NCBI GenBank assembly: GCA_963726195.1
Contig: CAVSBO010000004.1
Coordinates: 256,001 to 320,000 of the forward strand
Direction of reading: 5' to 3'
Source of the DNA: Candidatus Thorarchaeota archaeon
GTDB taxonomy: Archaea > Asgardarchaeota > Thorarchaeia > Thorarchaeales > Thorarchaeaceae
Length of the DNA: 64,000 bases
Below the pieces are notes generated by a model. The model had not been told where the DNA came from. It worked only from the letters and a program-made list of their open reading frames with translations, and searched no databases. Positions 2,098-12,554 of the stretch are shown in pieces (within the stretch, counting starts at the first letter, position 1; each line of letters opens with the position of its first letter). Made by a program: the position numbers and the translations under genes.

Positions 2098-3876
2098 CTA
2101 GCCTAGCTCTGACAGTCTCGCTTCGAGATATGATGCTAGTTCATTTATGATTGAACGTACCATGACTTGGGCCAATTCCACCCTAGCAAGACCAGCAGGT
2201 CGTTCAGGGACCTTCAGCGCATCGCTCGTCAGGATGCTCTCTAGCTGGATACGTGCTTTCAACGCCCTAGCCTTTGCCGTATCCAAGGAGGCTCGCAGTT
2301 TCGTTCTTAGAGCAGCTTCAGTCGGATTGGTAGTGGCTCCAGCAGTTGGCGTCTGATTGTAAACCGTCTCAATGTCGCGCATCAGGTCAGACAGCTGGTC
2401 TCTTGCTGAAGAGATTGCGGTCGCAAGGTCCCGCTTGGCTTTGCTGTCCCTGTTCGACTCGGCAGTAGCTGTTGCTTCTTCGGTCTTGAGCTTCTTCTCC
2501 TGGCCGGTGAGTATTGACTGCAGTGTTTGGCGCATAGGCTCCAGTTTGGATTTGGCAAATTCATGCATCTCAGCTTGTCTGGATGCTCGTACAGCCTTGA
2601 GAAAGTTTTCATCTCCGAGCAGTCCGTCTATTGTGTCAATGACATCATTCGCCAAGCTGATTCTCGCTTTGGCAATCTCCAGCCTCTTTTCCTGAGTGTC
2701 AGTTCTGGCCTTCTCCAGCGAGGTGCTCAGGCCGTCCACGACTCTTTTCAAGGGCTCTTTCTCGAGTTCGGATTCATCTATAGTGGATTCGAGAAGGCTG
2801 GCCCGCCCATCGGTAACATCAAGGTCGTGAAGAAGCTTCTCGGTTTCCTTGTAGTCTTTCAGGGTCAAAATTGCAGGTCCTGCTTGCAGTGAATATTCAG
2901 TGCCTAACCTGTCAGTGTAGGAGCCCCTAACCATCACCGAGAACTCCTTCACTCCCATGAGTTCCTCAGATGATCGTACGAACGCCTCCATGGAACCTGA
3001 TTGGCCGGCGCCGAGTGAAGCGATATTCTTCTTCTTATCGCCGTACACGAAGGTCAGTCCATCGTCAAGGAGCCATTCCGCACTGAGCTTTGAAGCGGCT
3101 CCTTCTCCTTGGTTGTTGAAGACCGCCTTGACTGAAAATTGCTCGGTGAAGGTCATGTCCACAGGTAGTTGGAGCTGTGTCATAACCTTCGGCATCTTCA
3201 GTTTGCCACGCAGAATCTCCCTTGCCATGTCCAGGCCCCTGTCGATGTACTTGCTAAACTCCTGTGCCGCGGCATCCACGAGGGCCGGCTTCAACTCGGC
3301 TACTGCCGTGGTCTCTGCGCTTGAAAAGGCCTCAATGTCGACACCCTTGATGGCAGCCTCAAGCTGTTGAGGGATTTGACTCAACCGAACGACATCAGTC
3401 GTGGTCATTTTGGAAGCGTTTTGTGCTGCGAAGGTCATTGCCCTTTGATATGCATCGGCCTCGCGCCCTATCATCAGGTAAATCATGCACGCAGCCATGG
3501 CAAGTCCGGTGCCTTTCTTTACACCTGCAGGTTCACCCCACATCAGGTTCTCATCAGCGGCTTTCAAGAGATCAAGAGCCGCTCCTTCGTATGCTCTAAT
3601 CGCTTTGTCAGAATCGGCGAGCTCAGAGTAGAGGTCGCCTGCTGCACACATGTTCAGTGCAGCGCTCTTGAAGCTCTTCGAAGTCCTGTACCGGTCGGCA
3701 GCTTTGACATAGGTCTCAGCCGCCTGCACATAGAGTCTTTCAGCGCCAGCATGGTCACCATTCTGCTCGGACAATTCCGCAGCTTGGGCGAACTTCCTGC
3801 CAGCCTCCGTGAAAGACTGTCTGAGAGACTCCTTCGTAGCCTCCTCGATGATATGTTTGACATCGTCTCTTGACAT
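2098..3876 (-). CDS. SNAP(NSF attachment protein)-like alpha-solenoid + Ig-like (CARDB-type) domain + C-terminal coiled coil
   Basis: N-terminal ~220 aa of TPR-like helices (EAGRKFAQAAEL, AAETYVKAADRY, AACMIYL, LEAAIKGVDIEAF); beta-sandwich FSVKAVFNNQGEGAA...GSYTDRLG; heptad-rich C-terminus. Confidence 0.6.
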   Translation of the reverse strand: MSRDDVKHIIEEATKESLRQSFTEAGRKFAQAAELSEQNGDHAGAERLYVQAAETYVKAADRYRTSKSFKSAALNMCAAGDLYSELADSDKAIRAYEGAALDLLKAADENLMWGEPAGVKKGTGLAMAACMIYLMIGREADAYQRAMTFAAQNASKMTTTDVVRLSQIPQQLEAAIKGVDIEAFSSAETTAVAELKPALVDAAAQEFSKYIDRGLDMAREILRGKLKMPKVMTQLQLPVDMTFTEQFSVKAVFNNQGEGAASKLSAEWLLDDGLTFVYGDKKKNIASLGAGQSGSMEAFVRSSEELMGVKEFSVMVRGSYTDRLGTEYSLQAGPAILTLKDYKETEKLLHDLDVTDGRASLLESTIDESELEKEPLKRVVDGLSTSLEKARTDTQEKRLEIAKARISLANDVIDTIDGLLGDENFLKAVRASRQAEMHEFAKSKLEPMRQTLQSILTGQEKKLKTEEATATAESNRDSKAKRDLATAISSARDQLSDLMRDIETVYNQTPTAGATTNPTEAALRTKLRASLDTAKARALKARIQLESILTSDALKVPERPAGLARVELAQVMVRSIINELASYLEARLSELG

Positions 3877-3976
3877 GGCTTCTTTCTCCTGCAGTGCCTG
3901 TACGCTCCATGGACGAGCTTATTTATCCCTCTTTCGAGAAGCTCGCCAAAGGGGTTCACAATGAGTAGTGTGCCTA

Positions 3977-4267
3977 CTAGTAGACTTCGCGCGGCGACTG
4001 TGTGAGCCTGTCGGGCAGCGTACCGCCGTGGCCCTCGATGACGAGTTCGTATCCTCGCCCTACGCGACCTTTCTTTGCGGTCTGGAAGCCGGCCTTCTCA
4101 ATAGCTCGGGCTCCTCGTTCCGCGGCTCGCCTCTCGATCATGCTCACGCCACCGGGTACGACTAGGATTAACTTCTTCTGAGTGTCATCCAAGGTCAATG
4201 TTACGTCGGTGGTAGGTTGTCCCGTACACTCAAAGAACTGACTGTTTTTGTACTCTAGAATCGTCAT
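3977..4267 (-). CDS. Small single-domain gelsolin/cofilin-fold protein (ProGel-like)
   Basis: 96 aa; VTLTLDDTQKKLILVVPGGVSMIERRAAERGARAI fits the gelsolin strand-strand-long-helix core; ELVIEG near the C-terminus. Confidence 0.6.
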   Translation of the reverse strand: MTILEYKNSQFFECTGQPTTDVTLTLDDTQKKLILVVPGGVSMIERRAAERGARAIEKAGFQTAKKGRVGRGYELVIEGHGGTLPDRLTQSPREVY

Positions 4268-4473: not shown

Positions 4474-4746
4474 TCAATCTCTGGGAGGAGGTGGAGGAAC
4501 ATCACCCTTACGCGTATCAATCTTTGTGAGTACCGAGTCGCGTTTCTTCTTGGGTGCGGCGAAGCCGATTATTATGAATACCAGCCCAATGACAGCCGCG
4601 ATTGCTCCAATCATGAAGGTGCTGGAACCTAGCAGCAGATTGCCATTCTGAGCGAGAAGAGCCAAGATTGCACCAACGATCAACAGCAGTACTCCTAGAC
4701 ATATCGGCACTGTGCGCGCATAGCTGCGTTTAGTGAGATAAGCCAT
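4474..4746 (-). CDS. Small two-TM membrane protein with C-terminal polyproline tail
   Basis: Two hydrophobic segments, basic stop-transfer PKKKR, ends DVPPPPPRD. Confidence 0.75.
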   Translation of the reverse strand: MAYLTKRSYARTVPICLGVLLLIVGAILALLAQNGNLLLGSSTFMIGAIAAVIGLVFIIIGFAAPKKKRDSVLTKIDTRKGDVPPPPPRD

Positions 4747-4856: not shown

Positions 4857-5746
4857 TCATGATGTCTGCTTCAATGACACGATAACTGTGCAACCATTGG
4901 ACGAAGTGTTAACCAGAACGTTTGCCCCTGTCGTGTCAGCGACCTTGCTCGCTAGCATTTCATGAAATGCGCAGGGAAAACCGGGGGCAGGCTGACTCCT
5001 CTGCTCCTAAGAGCGTTAGCGATTCTCAGTATCTCGCAGGCACCGGTTTCGACTGTAATCTTGCTCGAACCGGTTAGAGCCAGCTGGCTTTCACGAGAAC
5101 AAGCTTGAATGAAGGATACGAACTGCGTTATCAAATCAGCAGACTTGCCTGATGCAGCCCACCTCTCAATTAAGGCCCTTGCTGCCTGACCGAAAACCTC
5201 CTTCGGATGGTCCGGTCCCAGACTTGAACAATACGCAGCAACTTCGGCAATCAGTACAGAGTGCGCTTCCAAGTCAGTTTGCCAAGCCTCCGCAGGGCTC
5301 AGTGTCTTGACTGTAGGTATCTGTTCAAGTCGCGGAAGACTGAGTGCATAGTCGATTTGCACAGCTTCACGCCGAGCTTGAAGCCTCTCAGGATGCGGAC
5401 TGGCGTCAGTTGTCAGTGAAGAGCTTGAAGCATCCTCCCCTTCTCTGACAAGGTCCTTTTCCTCGTAGTTGGGACAGATGCCGGATTGCTCATATCTTCT
5501 TGCGTACTGCATGAGTCTTCCTGCACACATTGCTACAGAAGATCGGCTGAGACCCTCCAGTCTGATGAAACCGTAGATTACGCCAACAAAATCATCAAGG
5601 CTCAGTTGTGACATGGTCTTCTCGACGATAATCTTCTTTCCCCTGACTACGCGAGCAGCCCACTTTTCGTCCATAACACCAGCTTGCGCCGCATAACTCG
5701 TGTTCGTTATCACGACCAATGGCGAGATGGGATAGAACCCGGCCAT
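4857..5746 (-). CDS. Hypothetical protein with V4R-like C-terminal domain (frameshift at ~4985)
   Basis: ORF 4952..5746; shifting frame in the G5 run gives ...GFPCAFHEMLASKVADTTGANVLVNTSSNGCTVIVSLKQTS*, completing a C..C..C pattern (ACEI, PCAFH, GCTV). Confidence 0.55.
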
Positions 5747-5842: not shown

Positions 5843-8336
5843 TCATGGTCTCTTGGTTTTCACCCGGAGTGTGAGGATGGAATGAGGACCCACCGGCAGC
5901 CGGAATGTATTGGTGTGGAAACCTATTTCGCCCATGTCTCTTTCACACAAGTCCGTGAGATTCACGGATTCGAGCTCATAGAAGAACTTGAGCGTGGCAA
6001 TGCCTTCGGTGCCACCCATTTCATAGAGTCTTAGCACGAATTCTCCGGGATTCCCGGTCGGCTTGAGGCAGGAAAGAGCCAAGTCCATGCCCTGTATCTC
6101 GAGAAATGATGCCTCGTGAGGCAGGCTGCCGCCAGTGCTCTCTTGACAACATGCCATCAGGGGCAGGCGATGTTCAGCGGAGCTCCTCCATACCTTGGCT
6201 TTGTCCCACTTTCCTCGATGAGGAATAATAGAGTAGTGGAAGATGTGTGTCCCAATCTCGCGTGCAGTCTCGGTTTCTATTATCTCATCATCCTTTCCGC
6301 GGGAGAGGTAGTTTACGCTTCTGAGAAGAGTTGCTGAGAGCACGCCATCCGTGAATTCATAATCGTGGAGCCCGATTGCTGAGAAGCAAATTCCAAGGTC
6401 TGGTCCGGCACAGTCCACCCAATCAAGTGCGTGAAAGAGACCACCTTTGTTGCCTGCTTGGGAGGACCCGCTCCGAGGTATGACAAGCCTCTCCTCAGCA
6501 GCAAACTGCGACCCAACGACGACGCTGTTCGTGTAGACATTCAATGGGAAACTCAAGCGCACTCGCCTTTCTTGTCCCTTGAACTCCAATTCGGTCTCAA
6601 AGTCGACTCGGCGTACACCCTCATAGACGGAAATGCGTTGTCTACGAGTGCATCCATCGAAGTCGCCTGAGATTTCTGCGGTGGCCCGAACAGGTCCGGT
6701 TTCAACAATCTGTATCTTGGAAACAGTACGCAGGGACGTCACTTGGGAGTCCTGAAGCGATCGATTCGAAGGAGAGAATTCGTACAGGTCTCCTACGTCC
6801 GTTTCAATCGTGATGTAGTTCCCGCGTTCTCTAAGGAGCTCGTTTTGGCTCGCCTTGTCAAAGAACCTGAAGATGGCGCCGCTGAATTCATCGAACTCAA
6901 GAATGAAATTGCTGGACTCAATCCAGTTCCTCCCAGTTCTTATTGAGGACGCAAATTCAGGAGCCTTCTCGACTGGGACCAGCGAGTAGACTCTATGGCT
7001 TAGTGGCGGCATTCCCGAGGCGACAAAAGCCAGATTCACAAGGGTCGAATCCTCACTTTTCTTTAGAACCTGAAATGGAATACTGCGACCGTCAGGACCT
7101 CGTAGGCTCGAATGCGCCCGAAATATGGTTGGTCAAGTCGACTTCGATTTGTACAAAGTCGTCCCGCGACCATGGCAATGGATTGGTGACTACGAAACTC
7201 AGATTCTCGGACGGTCTCGCGACCTGCGAAACCATTCGGGCAACTGTCTCTTCTAGTAGTTGCTCCGCTTGGGCAACTGCCTGTTGATACCTCTTGATAG
7301 CCTGCTTGAATGGTTCGTCTGCAAGGGCACCCCTGATGATGTTGTGATCTTGGTTGAAAAGCAGAATCCTCCACAGGTTCTCCAGTTGCGGTATTTTCTC
7401 ACGTTCATCGCCAAAGCTCATGTATAGTTCAATGAGGTGAACAAGACTCTCCAGCCTGCGATTCAGAATCTTGAGCTTGGTTCTGGCACTGAGTCCCCCT
7501 TGGTGCATCGAGGCAAACCGGTCGCTGTAAAGACCTCCCTCAATCACTGGCATTCTGGCCTGTACTGTCTTGGTCTTGTCAGTGAACTCGCGTGGAGTCA
7601 CTATTGCCATCCGCATGTCAGGAAAGGTTGAGTTCCACTTGCTGGCGATATCGGCGAGATGAGGTAGGGGCGGGACAAGTTCTCCGCCAGTTGGTATGAG
7701 CAAGTTGTTCGAAACCGCGTGGCTGCTTATTGCTTCAATAATCTTCAGAATCTTGGTGAATGCATCTCTCTGATTCTCAGACAACCACGCAGCACAGTCA
7801 TATCCCTGAGAGAGCCACGTTGCGATTACTTGGCTGCCGTCAGGTGCTTTCCAGATGAACTCGCTCGGCGAGTCATAACCCATGCCCCGCCAGAAGTAGT
7901 ACGAATCCATTCCGCACAATCTAAGGATTTGCGGCATCTGAGAGGGATGTCCAGCCGAATCGATTGCCCACCCTGTACGAACGTCTATCCCAAATTCCTT
8001 TCTGAAGAACTGTGTGCCGTACAGATACTGGCGTACTATCGACTCCCCGTCGGGCAAGACAAAGTCGGGCATTACATAGGTTCCGCCGACAATCTCGACA
8101 CGTCCCTCTAATACACGCTGATGCAGTGTGTCCCAGTAATTCGGAAACAGCTTCTTGAAGCCCTCTAGCAACGTGACTTGGTCCAAACAGAACCTGTGGG
8201 TAGGATTGACTTCGAGGAAATCTAGTACGCTCTTTACATTCCAAGAGCCAATGCTCACATAGTGTTCGTATGTTCGAGACCTGGAATTATCGAAGTGCAA
8301 AAACGGGCACATGTTGAGGATCCAACGGTCGGTCAT
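5843..8336 (-). CDS. GH38 alpha-mannosidase family protein (split by a frameshift at ~7105)
   Basis: HFD, EIVGGTYVMPD, GESIVRQ, GWAIDSAGH..QMPQI, NQDH, NPLPWSR; C-terminal GH38C region (GPVRAT, TLLRS, VLRLYE). Removing one base joins the halves via LRGPDGRSIPFQV. Confidence 0.88.
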
Positions 8337-8649
8337 GCAAGTCACATCTGTCGGCAGGCCATCGTCTGAGTCTCTAGTTAGGAGTCCTGTCACCTTTATG
8401 AGCATTGCCAGTGGTCAAGGGGCGGGCTATTGATGTGACACAGGACCCTTCAATTGACCCACCGATTGGTCTGTTGGGCAAAGAGAGCGGAAAGATCAAC
8501 GAGCAACAGGACCTGGAAGAGACTTGTGCCAACGCTTCACGTGATGATATCCTGGTCGGAGAACGCAGAGGGGTCGTGTCTTCTCTCTTGAGAACTTGCG
8601 TCCTGAAATGCCGAGTGTGCACTACCCCAACTGCAGGTTGTCCGAACAC

Positions 8650-10836
8650 TTACACGTACCCTGTCAGCGCTTCGGCTTTCTGTGGTTGACGTCTGAGAAT
8701 CACCTCAGCTATCTCCTGGAAGCGTTTCAGGTCGTCAGGACTAATGCTTGGTCGTACCTCGTGTAGGGCCTCGTCGAAATGCTTCATTTCGACGGGCTTG
8801 ACTTTCCAGTTGTTCCTGACTGCGGCCATTGCTGCCTCTCTGCACAGACCTTCTATGTCAGCTCCGGAGAATCCGTCTGTGAGGTCTGCCAATCGCTCAA
8901 GGTTCACGTCCTTAGCTAGGGGCATTTTCCTAGTGTGGACCTTGAGGATTTCTAGCCGAGCGGCTCTGTCGGGTGGCGGCACGAAGAGAACGGCGTCAAA
9001 CCTTCCCGGCCTCAGGACAGCGGGGTCAAGCATATCAGCACGGTTAGTGGCGCCGATAACCAACACGTTCTGCAGGGTCTGCATTCCGTCCACCTCTGCT
9101 AGGAACTGGTTAACGATTCTCTGGCTCACGCCCGAGTCATCTCGAGACCCTCTTGCGCTGAGAATCGCGTCAATCTCATCGAAGAACAGTATGCATGGTG
9201 CTACCTGCCGGGCTTTCTTGAAAATCTCGCGAACCGCCTTCTCTGATTCACCTACATACTTGTTGAAGAACTCAGGCCCCTTGACAGCGATGAAGTTCGC
9301 CTCACTCTCTGTTGCCACAGCCTTGGCAAGCAGTGTCTTCCCTGTGCCCGGGGGTCCAAAGAGCATTATGCCCTTGGGAGTTCTGATTCCCATGCCACTG
9401 AAGACCTCAGGGTGTTTGAGTGGCGCCTCGACGGCCTCCCTGAGCTGAGCCTTCACCTTTTCCAAGCCGCCGATGTCGTCCCATCGTACATTCGGCTTTT
9501 CGACCATTACTTCTCTAAGCGCGGATGGTGATACCTCGGTAAGAGCCGTCTCAAAGTCCGCTTGCGTCACAAAGAGACTGTTCAGAACATCAGGAGGAAT
9601 GTCTCCAGTCTCGGGATCAACATGCGGGAGTGCTCTACGCAGAGCCTGCATGGCTGCTTCTCGTGCTAGTGCTGCGAGATCGGCCCCCACGAATCCGTGA
9701 GTAATTGCTGCGAGCTTCTCAAGGTCGAGACCCTGTTCAAGAGGCATAGCCCTTGTATGTATTTGAAGAATCTCAAGGCGACCTTTCTTGTCAGGGACTC
9801 CTAGCACTATTTCTCTGTCAAACCTGCCGGGCCTTCTGAGAGCAGGATCTAAGTCGTCTGGCCGATTGGTCGCACCGATTACTATGACCTGACCACGGGT
9901 CTGTAGACCATCCATTAGTGCCAAGAGCTGAGCCACGACCCTTCTTTCTACTTCCCCTGTCACTTCTGCTCGCTTGGGCGCAATGCTGTCAATCTCATCG
10001 ATGAAGATGATGCTCGGAGCATTCTTTTCTGCGTCGTCAAAGACCTCTCTTAGCTTCTGCTCGGACTCACCATAGAACTTGGACATTATCTCAGGTCCGT
10101 TTATGGTCTTGAACGTCGCTCCTGATTCGTTGGCAACTGCTTTTGCTATCAATGTCTTTCCGGTACCTGGAGGTCCTGTAAGCAATACACCCTTTGGAGG
10201 TGCAATTCCCAAGCGCTTGAACAGCTCGGGTGACTTCATGGGCAGTTCAATCATTTCGCGTATCTTCTGCAGCTCTTTTCCTAAGCCGCCAATATCCTCG
10301 TACGTGACCTGAGGAATGGACACCTCTTCGGGAGCAGCTGGTCCTGTCCGGACTTCGACCTTTGTCTCAGGTGTTACGCGAGCATGCTTGGCCGGAGCGA
10401 CGGTCGTGACTGTGAATTGAAGGCCTTGGCCGATGGATGCAACTAGCAAAGCATCTCCTCTTGTAACGGGCTTGTTGATGATTTGCTGCTTAATGTACTC
10501 CTCAAATCCAGGCTGAAATCTCACAGGCTGGCTTGGAGCCAAGACGATTCGCGATGCTTCGGAGAGGGTTATGGCCGAGACCTCAACCACATCGCCTAGC
10601 TTCACCCCGGCATTGCTTCTGATGAGGCCGTCCATTCTTATCATATCAAGAATCTCATCTTCTTTGAGTGCGGGCCAGCAAACGGCAACGGTTTCCTTGC
10701 TGGCTTTGAGAAGAACGTAGTCACCAGATCTGACTCCGAGTTGATTCCTCACATCACTGTTCAGTCTGACAATGCCTCGGCCTTGATCCCTCGGCATGGC
10801 CGCGGCAACCTTTAAGCTCACTGACTCTCCCGGCAT
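8650..10836 (-). CDS. cdc48: Cdc48/p97/VAT family double AAA+ ATPase
   Basis: N-domain (DQGRGIVRL), two GPPGTGKT Walker A motifs, FIDEID/FFDEID Walker B, ALRRPGRFD/AVLRPGRFD, C-terminal GYV. Confidence 0.97.
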   Translation of the reverse strand: MPGESVSLKVAAAMPRDQGRGIVRLNSDVRNQLGVRSGDYVLLKASKETVAVCWPALKEDEILDMIRMDGLIRSNAGVKLGDVVEVSAITLSEASRIVLAPSQPVRFQPGFEEYIKQQIINKPVTRGDALLVASIGQGLQFTVTTVAPAKHARVTPETKVEVRTGPAAPEEVSIPQVTYEDIGGLGKELQKIREMIELPMKSPELFKRLGIAPPKGVLLTGPPGTGKTLIAKAVANESGATFKTINGPEIMSKFYGESEQKLREVFDDAEKNAPSIIFIDEIDSIAPKRAEVTGEVERRVVAQLLALMDGLQTRGQVIVIGATNRPDDLDPALRRPGRFDREIVLGVPDKKGRLEILQIHTRAMPLEQGLDLEKLAAITHGFVGADLAALAREAAMQALRRALPHVDPETGDIPPDVLNSLFVTQADFETALTEVSPSALREVMVEKPNVRWDDIGGLEKVKAQLREAVEAPLKHPEVFSGMGIRTPKGIMLFGPPGTGKTLLAKAVATESEANFIAVKGPEFFNKYVGESEKAVREIFKKARQVAPCILFFDEIDAILSARGSRDDSGVSQRIVNQFLAEVDGMQTLQNVLVIGATNRADMLDPAVLRPGRFDAVLFVPPPDRAARLEILKVHTRKMPLAKDVNLERLADLTDGFSGADIEGLCREAAMAAVRNNWKVKPVEMKHFDEALHEVRPSISPDDLKRFQEIAEVILRRQPQKAEALTGYV

Positions 10837-10862: not shown

Positions 10863-11285
10863 CTACTCTTTTGAGCCAATCTCCTCTTCACTATTAAGAG
10901 TCTTTGGAAGGTGCATCTCCATCACGCCGTTCCTAACGGATGTGTTTGATTTCTTCAAACTCACGTTGTAGGGCAAATCAAACTTGAGTTCTCTGTCGTT
11001 ATCACCGTCAATCTTGACTGTTAGCTGTCGGTTCTTGATGACTGCTCGCGGTCTCGCAGCGTCTGACACTCCGTCGACTGCGATAAGAATGCTGTCTCCT
11101 AAATCGATCATTTCTCCATGATCTTCGTTACTCTCTATCTCGGACTCAAAGCGCTGCTCGTCTGAGCCTTCGTCGTGGTCGTCTGATTCTGCATCTAGAG
11201 AGCTGAAAGGACTCATCCTAAGCATGTCCGACATCATTCTGCCAAACAGCTGGTCCACTATTCTCTTGAAGTCATCATCAATCAT
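10863..11285 (-). CDS. Small heat-shock protein (Hsp20/alpha-crystallin-like)
   Basis: Probable start MIDDDFKRIVDQLF; C-terminal FDLPYNV...SVRNGVMEMHLPK; directly upstream of cdc48, a common archaeal arrangement. Confidence 0.8.
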   Translation of the reverse strand: MIDDDFKRIVDQLFGRMMSDMLRMSPFSSLDAESDDHDEGSDEQRFESEIESNEDHGEMIDLGDSILIAVDGVSDAARPRAVIKNRQLTVKIDGDNDRELKFDLPYNVSLKKSNTSVRNGVMEMHLPKTLNSEEEIGSKE

Positions 11286-11374
11286 AGTTCCCTCATCTCT
11301 TGGTGAGGTCCCGGGCGGCTGTTCACCGCCCTGAGAGTCACGTTCGGGACCTCTGTACAGCTTGGTACAGTGGG

Positions 11375-11422
11375 CTAGGGACCACTTTGTACCATAGCCA
11401 CTAGGGACCACTTTGTATATAA
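11375..11422 (-). promoter_or_regulatory. hsp20-cdc48 promoter: TATA box plus two perfect 17-bp direct repeats
   Basis: CTAGGGACCACTTTGTA at 11375-11391 and 11401-11417; TTATATA on the minus strand at 11416-11422. Confidence 0.65.
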
Positions 11423-11645
11423 GGTTTATGAACTGCATGCGTGTCTCAAGGGCGGGAGGTACACAGCTCTGAGCTGAATTCTCAGGATGGGCCTTCACGG
11501 TCGGCTTCACACCTCAACTGTCTTGTTCTTGCCAAAACCACGTTACTATTCCATTCCTAGAAACGAGCCGGAAGGAATATGGATATAACAAAACTCAATC
11601 ACTCTGACAGCATACGAAGCAAACACGATTCGGAGGATGTGCGAC

Positions 11646-12554
11646 ATGGTCCGATGCTCTCTATGCGGGCAGGAAGAACTCTGTTTCACCTGTCAATACT
11701 GCAAGGGAGTGTTTTGTGCCGAGCACCGTCTTCCGGAGAGCCACGGATGTCCGAGCCTGCAAAGAGCTCGTGATGATGCTAGGAAGAGGATAGCCGATTC
11801 GTTCAGTGGCGAGTACTTAGAGGAAGAAGAAGACACCGAGGAGAACACGACTTCTGTTCGGGCGCCAGTCATAAGACGGCCTCTAGAAGCTCGTCCAGCG
11901 ACACGGTCGAGGTTTTCATCCCAAGAGAAGAGAGACATTGTCATTGCTTCAGTTCTCGTCAGCTTGGTCGCGTTGTCCATGATAGGGAGTCCTAGCGGAA
12001 TAGTCTCAACGCTGCTCATTCTCCCTAGCATAATCTCCGCTGGGTTGTGGTGGTACCCGACGACGCTTGTCATCATCTTTCTCTCATCATTCATGATACA
12101 CGAGATGGCCCACAAGTTCGTGGCACAGCACTATGGGATGTGGAGCGAGTTCAGGATGCTGCCCTATGGCTACTTCCTGTCAGCCATGGCAATACTGTTC
12201 TCAATTCCTGTGTTTGGTACTGGCGCAGTGTTCACATCGGGATCTACGAGTCCTGACAGGGATGCCAAGTCGACCTTGGCTGGCCCCTTGTCAAACGCTG
12301 TCTTGGCCTCGATATTCACGGTCGTTGGTGTAATTGCATTCCTCTTCACAGGACTGCACTTCCCGTTTAGCTATGTGATACAATATGCAGCAGCTCTGAA
12401 TAGCATGCTCGGTTTGTTCAACCTGATACCATTTCCTCCGTTTGATGGGGCCCGAATCGTGCTATGGAGGAAAGGAGTTTGGGCCGCCATGCTTGTAGCG
12501 CTGTTTGCTTTGCTGATTGCAGACTATTGGTTCATCCCGATGCTCTGGAGTTAA
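11646..12554 (+). CDS. AN1-type zinc finger fused to M50 (site-2) intramembrane metalloprotease
   Basis: CSLC-x6-CQYC-x3-CAEHRLPESHGC; HEMAH; AGPLSN; FNLIPFPPFDG; several TM helices; GGAGG upstream. Confidence 0.9.
   Translation: MVRCSLCGQEELCFTCQYCKGVFCAEHRLPESHGCPSLQRARDDARKRIADSFSGEYLEEEEDTEENTTSVRAPVIRRPLEARPATRSRFSSQEKRDIVIASVLVSLVALSMIGSPSGIVSTLLILPSIISAGLWWYPTTLVIIFLSSFMIHEMAHKFVAQHYGMWSEFRMLPYGYFLSAMAILFSIPVFGTGAVFTSGSTSPDRDAKSTLAGPLSNAVLASIFTVVGVIAFLFTGLHFPFSYVIQYAAALNSMLGLFNLIPFPPFDGARIVLWRKGVWAAMLVALFALLIADYWFIPMLWS

Follow-up and report, generated by a model that had tools for sequence, protein, structure and literature searches.

The window analysed here, a stretch of 64,000 nucleotides (nt) from contig CAVSBO010000004.1 of a Candidatus Thorarchaeota archaeon, carries on its minus strand a gene, P0001, whose product is referred to below as SNAPL. 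The protein is predicted to consist of four modules, namely a helical solenoid of the TPR clan, an immunoglobulin (Ig)-like beta-sandwich, a three-helix bundle and a long helical hairpin (Table 1). SNAPL represents a so far undescribed, Asgard-wide family of probable scaffolds of the TPR clan, marked by an unusual combination of domains rather than being a new system. A TATA-like box and a GGAG element precede the gene. As far as can be read directly from the sequence, this suggests that SNAPL has its own promoter and ribosome-binding site. Upstream lie the genes for p96, p90TM and p264 and a cdc48 gene.

Table 1. Features of the SNAPL gene and of its conserved upstream neighbours (positions within the window; aa, amino acids)
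Feature	Position	Strand	Basis or remark
Whole gene P0001 (SNAPL)	2098..3876	-	592 aa + stop; >200 full-length homologues
Long antiparallel helical hairpin, residues 422-592	2101..2613	-	AlphaFold2 model; helix 423-508 (86 residues) + return helices
Antiparallel three-helix bundle, residues 344-421	2614..2847	-	AlphaFold2 model, conservation, fold search
Ig-like beta-sandwich, residues 228-343, CARDB/TRAP-beta/macroglobulin type, cytosolic	2848..3195	-	Fold search, Pfam
TPR-clan solenoid, 11 helices, residues 1-226	3199..3876	-	Nearest family SNAP/Sec17 (Pfam, Foldseek, VIA-align, hhalign)
GGAG before SNAPL gene	3886-3889	-	Read directly from sequence
TATA-like ATAAATAA	3919..3926	-	43-50 nt upstream of ATG; read directly from sequence
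p96, 96 aa, no known family	3977..4267	-	Upstream neighbour of SNAPL; kept in thorarchaeal family f1
p90TM, 90 aa, two transmembrane helices, KKKR stretch, C-terminal PPPPP	4474..4746	-	Widest-range neighbour: f1 + f2
p264, 264 aa, no known family	4952..5746	-	Kept in f1
Cdc48 paralogue, CDC48_N + CDC48_2 + two AAA domains	8650..10836	-	f1-specific; Pfam

An initial annotation of this DNA had proposed that the open reading frame encodes a helical part followed by an Ig-like domain and a second helical part. This architecture was borne out by an AlphaFold2 model of the full-length protein, calculated from a 28-sequence alignment (mean predicted local distance difference test score, pLDDT, 86; predicted template-modelling score, pTM, 0.49). 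In the model, residues 4-225 are helical, residues 231-340 form strands and residues 344-591 are again helical. Modelled alone, residues 1-226 reached a pLDDT of 91 and a pTM of 0.87, and their eleven helices are arranged in hairpin pairs as a solenoid, as in the TPR clan (CL0020). The Pfam families TPR_12, TPR_8, TPR_2 and TPR_7 were matched in 5-11 of 28 family members, the matches to TPR_12, TPR_8 and TPR_2 being sub-threshold.

An invariant KxPK linker carries the solenoid straight into the Ig-like domain at residue 228. The best fold match of this domain is the lumenal domain of TRAP-beta (SSR2; 8b5l_v, Z 14.5, root-mean-square deviation (rmsd) 1.9 over 113 residues), followed by the macroglobulin (MG) domains of complement C3 (Z ~12); a Pyrococcus CARDB domain (3idu) reached Z 9.8. 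Pfam CARDB was matched in 13 of the 28 members (best E 1.8e-4) and TRAP_beta in eight, all near or below the cut-off. Fold and hidden Markov model (HMM) comparisons thus both identify a CARDB/TRAP_beta-type sandwich. While TRAP-beta, CARDB and MG domains share its topology, they are lumenal or extracellular and only ~10% identical in sequence. The SNAPL sandwich is cytosolic, because P0001 has neither a signal peptide nor a transmembrane segment. Neither of these, nor any enzyme domain, was found in P0001 by sequence analysis and by Pfam and NCBIfam searches.

The C-terminal rod had been described as a long coiled coil. Residues 344-591 are indeed helical, but they do not form one coiled coil. 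A three-helix bundle, which matches known bundles of this kind (Z ~11, rmsd 2.1 over 82 residues), is followed by a predicted intramolecular antiparallel hairpin whose longest helix extends over ~13 nm. The hairpin, residues 422-592, superposes on those of EnvC, Rad50, Smc5/6 and a chemoreceptor (Z 9.7-10, rmsd 4.5 over 162-171 residues). Unlike Rad50/SMC arms, EnvC or the chemoreceptor, it carries no head, hinge or signalling domains, and its geometry is generic to long helices.

It had also been suggested that the protein carries its own coiled-coil partner, and that SNARE-motif HMMs be run on residues 340-592. Members of the SNARE/syntaxin families (PF05739, PF00804) usually have a transmembrane anchor at the C-terminus. 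The SNARE HMM PF05739 gave no match at E < 0.1 in P0001 or in the family members. The rod produced weak matches to STX6_N (E 0.017) and to the syntaxin Habc domain (E 0.16), of the kind that any coiled coil gives, and no syntaxin or SNARE chain was among the 50 matches listed by a fold search with it. Throughout the genome, which is 88.9% complete, no SNARE or synaptobrevin match exceeded the Pfam cut-off. With no SNARE signal, an antiparallel fold and no transmembrane segment, the SNARE interpretation of residues 340-592 was rejected; the rod is not SNARE-like.

The gene is real, since over 200 full-length homologues with 556-603 aa were retrieved by a word-indexed search, the named ones nearly all from Thorarchaeota. 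An exhaustive phmmer search added relatives that are 21-27% identical and 437-700 aa long, those with names coming from metagenome-assembled genomes of Thor-, Baldr-, Odin-, Heimdall- and Kariarchaeaceae. A profile of solenoid and Ig domain matched in 156 of 201 sampled Asgard genomes, and matches that span the whole profile were distributed over 14 of the 25 Asgard families sampled. In one large family (f9) only the Ig part was matched, in proteins of ~436 aa. Conservation is uneven along the protein: within Thorarchaeota, mean identity to P0001 amounts to 65% in the solenoid, 55% in the Ig domain, 56% in the three-helix bundle and 32-36% in the hairpin, and across the Asgard homologues (437-700 aa) the length of the rod varies from ~100 to ~350 aa. 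A search for longer fused forms containing residues 1-345 found none, which is weak evidence. Source annotations call the homologues hypothetical or TPR repeat proteins, and a literature search revealed no description of a SNAP, Sec17 or SNAP-like protein from Asgard archaea.

Elsewhere in the same genome, a 430-aa protein (L007:1390-2682, plus strand; G000:C4:413671-414186) outscores P0001 with the SNAP HMM (31 bits) and contains an Ig domain of the DUF11 type; it seems to be a paralogue that has the solenoid-Ig plan in a shorter form. Adjoining it on the minus strand (L007:2719-3477) is a gene for a divergent, SNAP-HMM-positive protein of 252 aa.

The N-terminal part of P0001 had been taken for an alpha/gamma-SNAP-like domain. 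All strings quoted in support are present, namely EAGRKFAQAAEL (residues 24-35), AAETYVKAADRY (52-63), KAIRAYEGAA (91-100), AACMIYL (128-134) and LEAAIKGVDIEAFSSA (172-187), and among known families SNAP/Sec17 is the nearest by Pfam, Foldseek, VIA-align and hhalign. Pfam SNAP (PF14938) is the family matched by most members (18 of 28 at E < 0.1; best E 5.5e-8, 33 bits). A phmmer search of 1.8 billion proteins with P0001 returned P0172, a bona fide SNAP (PF14938 E 2e-61), as a significant match (E 6e-6); in BLASTP the two share 43% identity over 75 residues. Foldseek searches of the PDB with the domain model gave Sec17 or alpha-SNAP as all of the best 23 matches (E from 1.5e-4). VIA-align ranked SNAPs first, superposing P0001 residues 49-230 on gamma-SNAP 122-275 (Z 12.4, rmsd 3.7 over 140 residues) and on Sec17 130-292 (Z 12.1, rmsd 3.9 over 144). 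When the alignment of the family (A2) was compared by hhalign with one of five SNAP sequences (A4), the probability was 96.4 and E 1.4e-9. Sequence and structure comparisons share a single register, in which P0001 ~20-228 corresponds to SNAP ~115-290 and which reaches the C-terminal bundle. Here, hhalign and VIA-align place AACMIYL on the AxLCxL helix of SNAP and QQLEAAIKGVDIEAF on the LL..L...D...F helix of that bundle; the pairing of AACMIYL and LEAAIKGVDIEAF with the SNAP bundle motifs, proposed in the initial annotation, was thus reproduced by hhalign. An all-helical, TPR-like twisted solenoid that ends in a more globular helical bundle, as in alpha/gamma-SNAP and Sec17, is a plan that SNAPL may share, with AxxCxxL- and LExAxxxxDxxxF-type motifs in line.

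However, in the controls this similarity could not be told apart from the background of the TPR clan. On the SNAP HMM, P0001 itself scores 16.8 bits (E 0.0048), below the curated cut-off of 25 bits; among the members with bit scores given, only P0052 passes (33 bits) and P0027 falls just short (24.3). The HMM is unspecific, as it found matches in 4 of 14 control prokaryote genomes, including ordinary prokaryotic TPR proteins, and five other places in the thorarchaeal genome outscore P0001. In hhalign, reversed-sequence controls gave probabilities of 83-91 and scores of 44-48, against 69 for the forward comparison, and the SNAP profile aligned to a classic TPR protein of this genome with a probability of 95. 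The C-terminal half of the solenoid alone gave a probability of 9 and E 0.0036, in the colinear place. When the family profile HMM was run against PDB sequences, it favoured designed consensus TPRs over SNAPs, whose E values were 0.026-1.4. In the structural comparison with Sec17 and gamma-SNAP that had been recommended, SNAPs are the top matches of Foldseek and VIA-align, but global TM-scores of the domain model to them are ~0.3 (Foldseek), and their VIA Z values tie, within 1 unit, with those of designed repeats, Rpn6-type proteasome-lid subunits and LGN. Overall, generic TPR-clan solenoids of the PDB (LGN/Pins, Rpn6-type PCI lid, HAP40, 14-3-3, designed repeats) reach Z 9.5-11.7. A fold search of the ESM atlas with the N-terminal domain listed only generic TPR clusters (TM 0.35-0.53; 0.44-0.53 to bacterial TPR proteins).

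SNAPL also differs from SNAPs in its construction. Its eleven helices are packed into 226 aa, compared with ~290 aa for SNAP, and identity is 12-18%. The N-terminal hydrophobic membrane-insertion loop is an established feature of alpha-SNAP and Sec17, and the free acidic C-terminus of SNAP, with its penultimate Leu, stimulates NSF. In every alignment the first 31 to ~114 residues of SNAP, the region that includes this loop, had no counterpart, and the only loop within the first 40 residues of P0001, between helices 1 and 2, reads RQS. Unlike SNAP, SNAPL thus begins without an equivalent of the first 30-110 residues and has no free C-terminal tail, the solenoid being fused to the Ig domain and rod. 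SNAPs engage a bundle of four SNARE helices as well as the N domain of an ATPase of the NSF/Cdc48 type. Because it has neither the membrane loop nor a free NSF-activating C-terminus, because its rod contains no SNARE motif and because the genome yielded no SNARE matches, SNAPL is probably not a functional equivalent of SNAP. One point, taken from profile comparisons, remains in favour of SNAP: the family profile aligned to single SNAP sequences with probabilities of 96, 86, 68 and 32, and to the canonical TPR protein of its own genome with a probability of 19. The SNAPL repeats also differ from those of generic TPR proteins, as they exceed the 34 residues of the TPR in length and are more irregular. 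Residues 1-226 are therefore best described as a TPR-clan solenoid whose nearest known family is SNAP; a specific common ancestry with SNAP, beyond that of the clan, is plausible but unproven.

The surroundings of the gene differ between lineages. In eight genomes of thorarchaeal family f1 the order is Hsp20-like, Cdc48, GH38 (optional), p264, p90TM, p96 and SNAPL, followed by an aminotransferase and a Roadblock gene in convergent orientation. As initially stated, cdc48 lies about 5 kb away, its end being 4.8 kb upstream of the SNAPL start codon; among the f1 genomes it is always co-oriented and 2-6 kb upstream, the distance being ~2 kb where GH38 is absent. Of this block, family f2, with a SNAPL of 461 aa that is 28% identical, keeps only the genes for p90TM and SNAPL, the aminotransferase and the Roadblock gene; Cdc48, p264 and p96 are not kept. 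The f2 orthologue of p90TM ends in eight prolines. Two Heimdall genomes, whose SNAPL homologues share 32% identity, have the gene beside pyruvate kinase and a tubulin-like cluster. At these loci (L002 3711-9062 and L004 4379-9922) SNAPL comes after pyruvate kinase and a three-gene cluster with sub-threshold matches to the Tubulin/FtsZ GTPase domain, in two genes of one genome and one gene of the other; this adjacency is conserved. In a Baldr genome, SNAPL adjoins an M54 peptidase. The Heimdall and Baldr loci examined have no Cdc48 and no p90TM close to SNAPL.

Several other observations were made along the f1 block. A gelsolin fold for p96 and a V4R-like assignment for p264 were considered and discarded, as Pfam, NCBIfam, PDB sequence and atlas feature searches gave no match for either. 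The GH38 alpha-mannosidase (5843-8405, minus strand) is split into two open reading frames in different frames, one with the N-terminal and middle domains (7092-8405) and one with the C-terminal domains (5843-7039). Its orthologues in other Thorarchaeota are single genes of 828-842 aa, and two other genomes have the cluster without any GH38 gene; the split is a frameshift, reflecting either a pseudogene or an assembly error. The gene preceding cdc48 (10863-11510, minus strand) encodes 215 aa and matches Hsp20 very weakly. Divergent from it, an AN1 zinc finger is fused to an M50 site-2-type protease (11637-12554, plus strand), and other f1 genomes likewise have the two genes head to head.

Taking these data together, we lean towards a reading in which SNAPL is a soluble, non-enzymatic adaptor or scaffold. 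The conserved front half, composed of solenoid, Ig domain and three-helix bundle, is predicted to be the partner-binding head, which by analogy would act like other TPR and SNAP proteins in clasping helices or extended peptides. The poorly conserved hairpin of variable length may serve as a spacer or in oligomerisation. A site of action at the membrane is probable for the head in Thorarchaeota, because the neighbour kept most widely is p90TM, a protein with two transmembrane helices and a basic, polyproline cytosolic tail at residues ~64-90, and such a tail would suit a TPR groove. Some findings weigh against this adaptor reading. The pTM of the full-length model does not fix the arrangement of the domains relative to one another. 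The link to p90TM is one of adjacency within a single order, and the loci examined from Heimdall, from Baldr and from three other Asgard genomes lack it. Tight co-transcription is made less likely by the TATA-like box before the gene and by intergenic gaps of 100-205 nt. Finally, the strict synteny with a lineage-specific Cdc48 paralogue in f1 is also compatible with an adaptor of Cdc48.

The last point bears on the rival proposal, which goes back to the initial annotation, that SNAPL is a true archaeal SNAP homologue which adapts Cdc48, here the neighbouring f1 paralogue, to helical-bundle substrates and is a possible precursor of the NSF-SNAP system. That four independent types of comparison put SNAP first, and do so in a common register reaching the C-terminal bundle, would fit this proposal, as would the significant phmmer match to P0172 and the constant spacing from the f1-specific Cdc48, even where GH38 is missing. 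We nevertheless regard it as unlikely. The controls place the SNAP similarity at the level of the TPR clan, the C-terminal half of the solenoid aligning poorly by itself, and both the loop region and the free C-terminus of SNAP are without equivalent. The genome holds two Cdc48 genes, and the copy in the window is a paralogue restricted to f1, its N domain being 67-80% identical within that family and ~42% elsewhere. SNAPL is found Asgard-wide and has no adjoining Cdc48 in the f2, Heimdall and Baldr loci. Since the solenoid-Ig profile occurs in most of the sampled Asgard genomes, the SNAPL family is far older and wider than the Cdc48 paralogue linked to it. The f1 block also contains plainly unrelated genes (aminotransferase, Roadblock, GH38), and the Cdc48 linkage is one of general synteny. 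The second Cdc48 gene, a more widely conserved copy with a ~42% identical N domain, is located on another contig (G000:C16:55828). Complex prediction of P0001 residues 1-345 with the Cdc48 N domain (residues 1-195) returned 0.36, 0.00 and 0.00 in three runs and counts neither for nor against binding. A broader version, in which the solenoid is a pre-eukaryotic SNAP relative and SNAPL an Asgard-wide adaptor that hands helical-bundle clients to Cdc48, possibly with its own rod as a built-in regulator, seems unlikely to us. Nothing in the analysis shows that SNAPL works with Cdc48 or with SNAREs, and both the SNAP ancestry and the Cdc48 adaptor function are unproven.

A scaffold of the coat or tether type, docking a small GTPase or longin/Roadblock modules at membranes, would be a different solution. 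TRAPPC8/9/10/11, the appendage subunits of adaptins and COPI, and BBS9 are all built from a solenoid with a beta-sandwich after it. The best full-length Foldseek matches of SNAPL are proteins with solenoid and sandwich, namely INTS7 (7.5e-7) and a COPI subunit (5a1u_E, 1e-5), but with TM-scores of 0.14 and rmsd of ~20 Å. The language-model atlas lists clusters of the TRAPPC11/TRAPPC8 type (Foie-gras + Ig) at 0.75-0.77, which is under the tool's own lead threshold of 0.9. In published TRAPPIII structures, TRAPPC8/11 are alpha-solenoids (PMC8204870), and Roadblock and longin-type genes are present near SNAPL. Still, no TRAPP large subunit was among the best 50 rows of the structural searches, and no Foie-gras or Gryzun match was found by Pfam in the 28 family members searched. 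SNAPL has its modules in the same order as TRAPPC8/11, gamma-COP/adaptins, INTS7 and BBS9, and like them it is non-enzymatic and of a protein-docking type. These proteins are much larger and there is no significant sequence or rigid-body match, so that the resemblance is one of plan only. We consider a role of this type improbable.

Very unlikely, finally, is a cytoskeleton-associated linker whose head binds a filament regulator and whose rod spaces the head from the membrane, as the divergent tubulin/FtsZ-fold genes beside the Heimdall homologues and the polyproline-tailed p90TM of the thorarchaeal cluster might suggest; the link is one of adjacency, the tubulin matches lie under the Pfam cut-off, and searches of Pfam, PDB and NCBIfam did not bear out the gelsolin fold claimed for p96.

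The adaptor or scaffold reading of SNAPL thus remains the one we prefer. In combining a SNAP-like solenoid with an Ig-like sandwich in the cytosol and with a rod, its plan resembles that of trafficking scaffolds in eukaryotes. To our knowledge, Cdc48 itself is so far the only accepted prokaryotic antecedent of the NSF-SNAP machinery. If kinship with SNAP or a partnership with Cdc48 were shown, SNAPL would provide a testable starting point for the origin of this machinery, and as a pre-eukaryotic SNAP relative it would retain the ancestral condition of the NSF-SNAP-SNARE disassembly machine. Failing that, SNAPL would still be a scaffold that is specific to Asgard archaea and widespread among them, and that has a candidate partner in the membrane.

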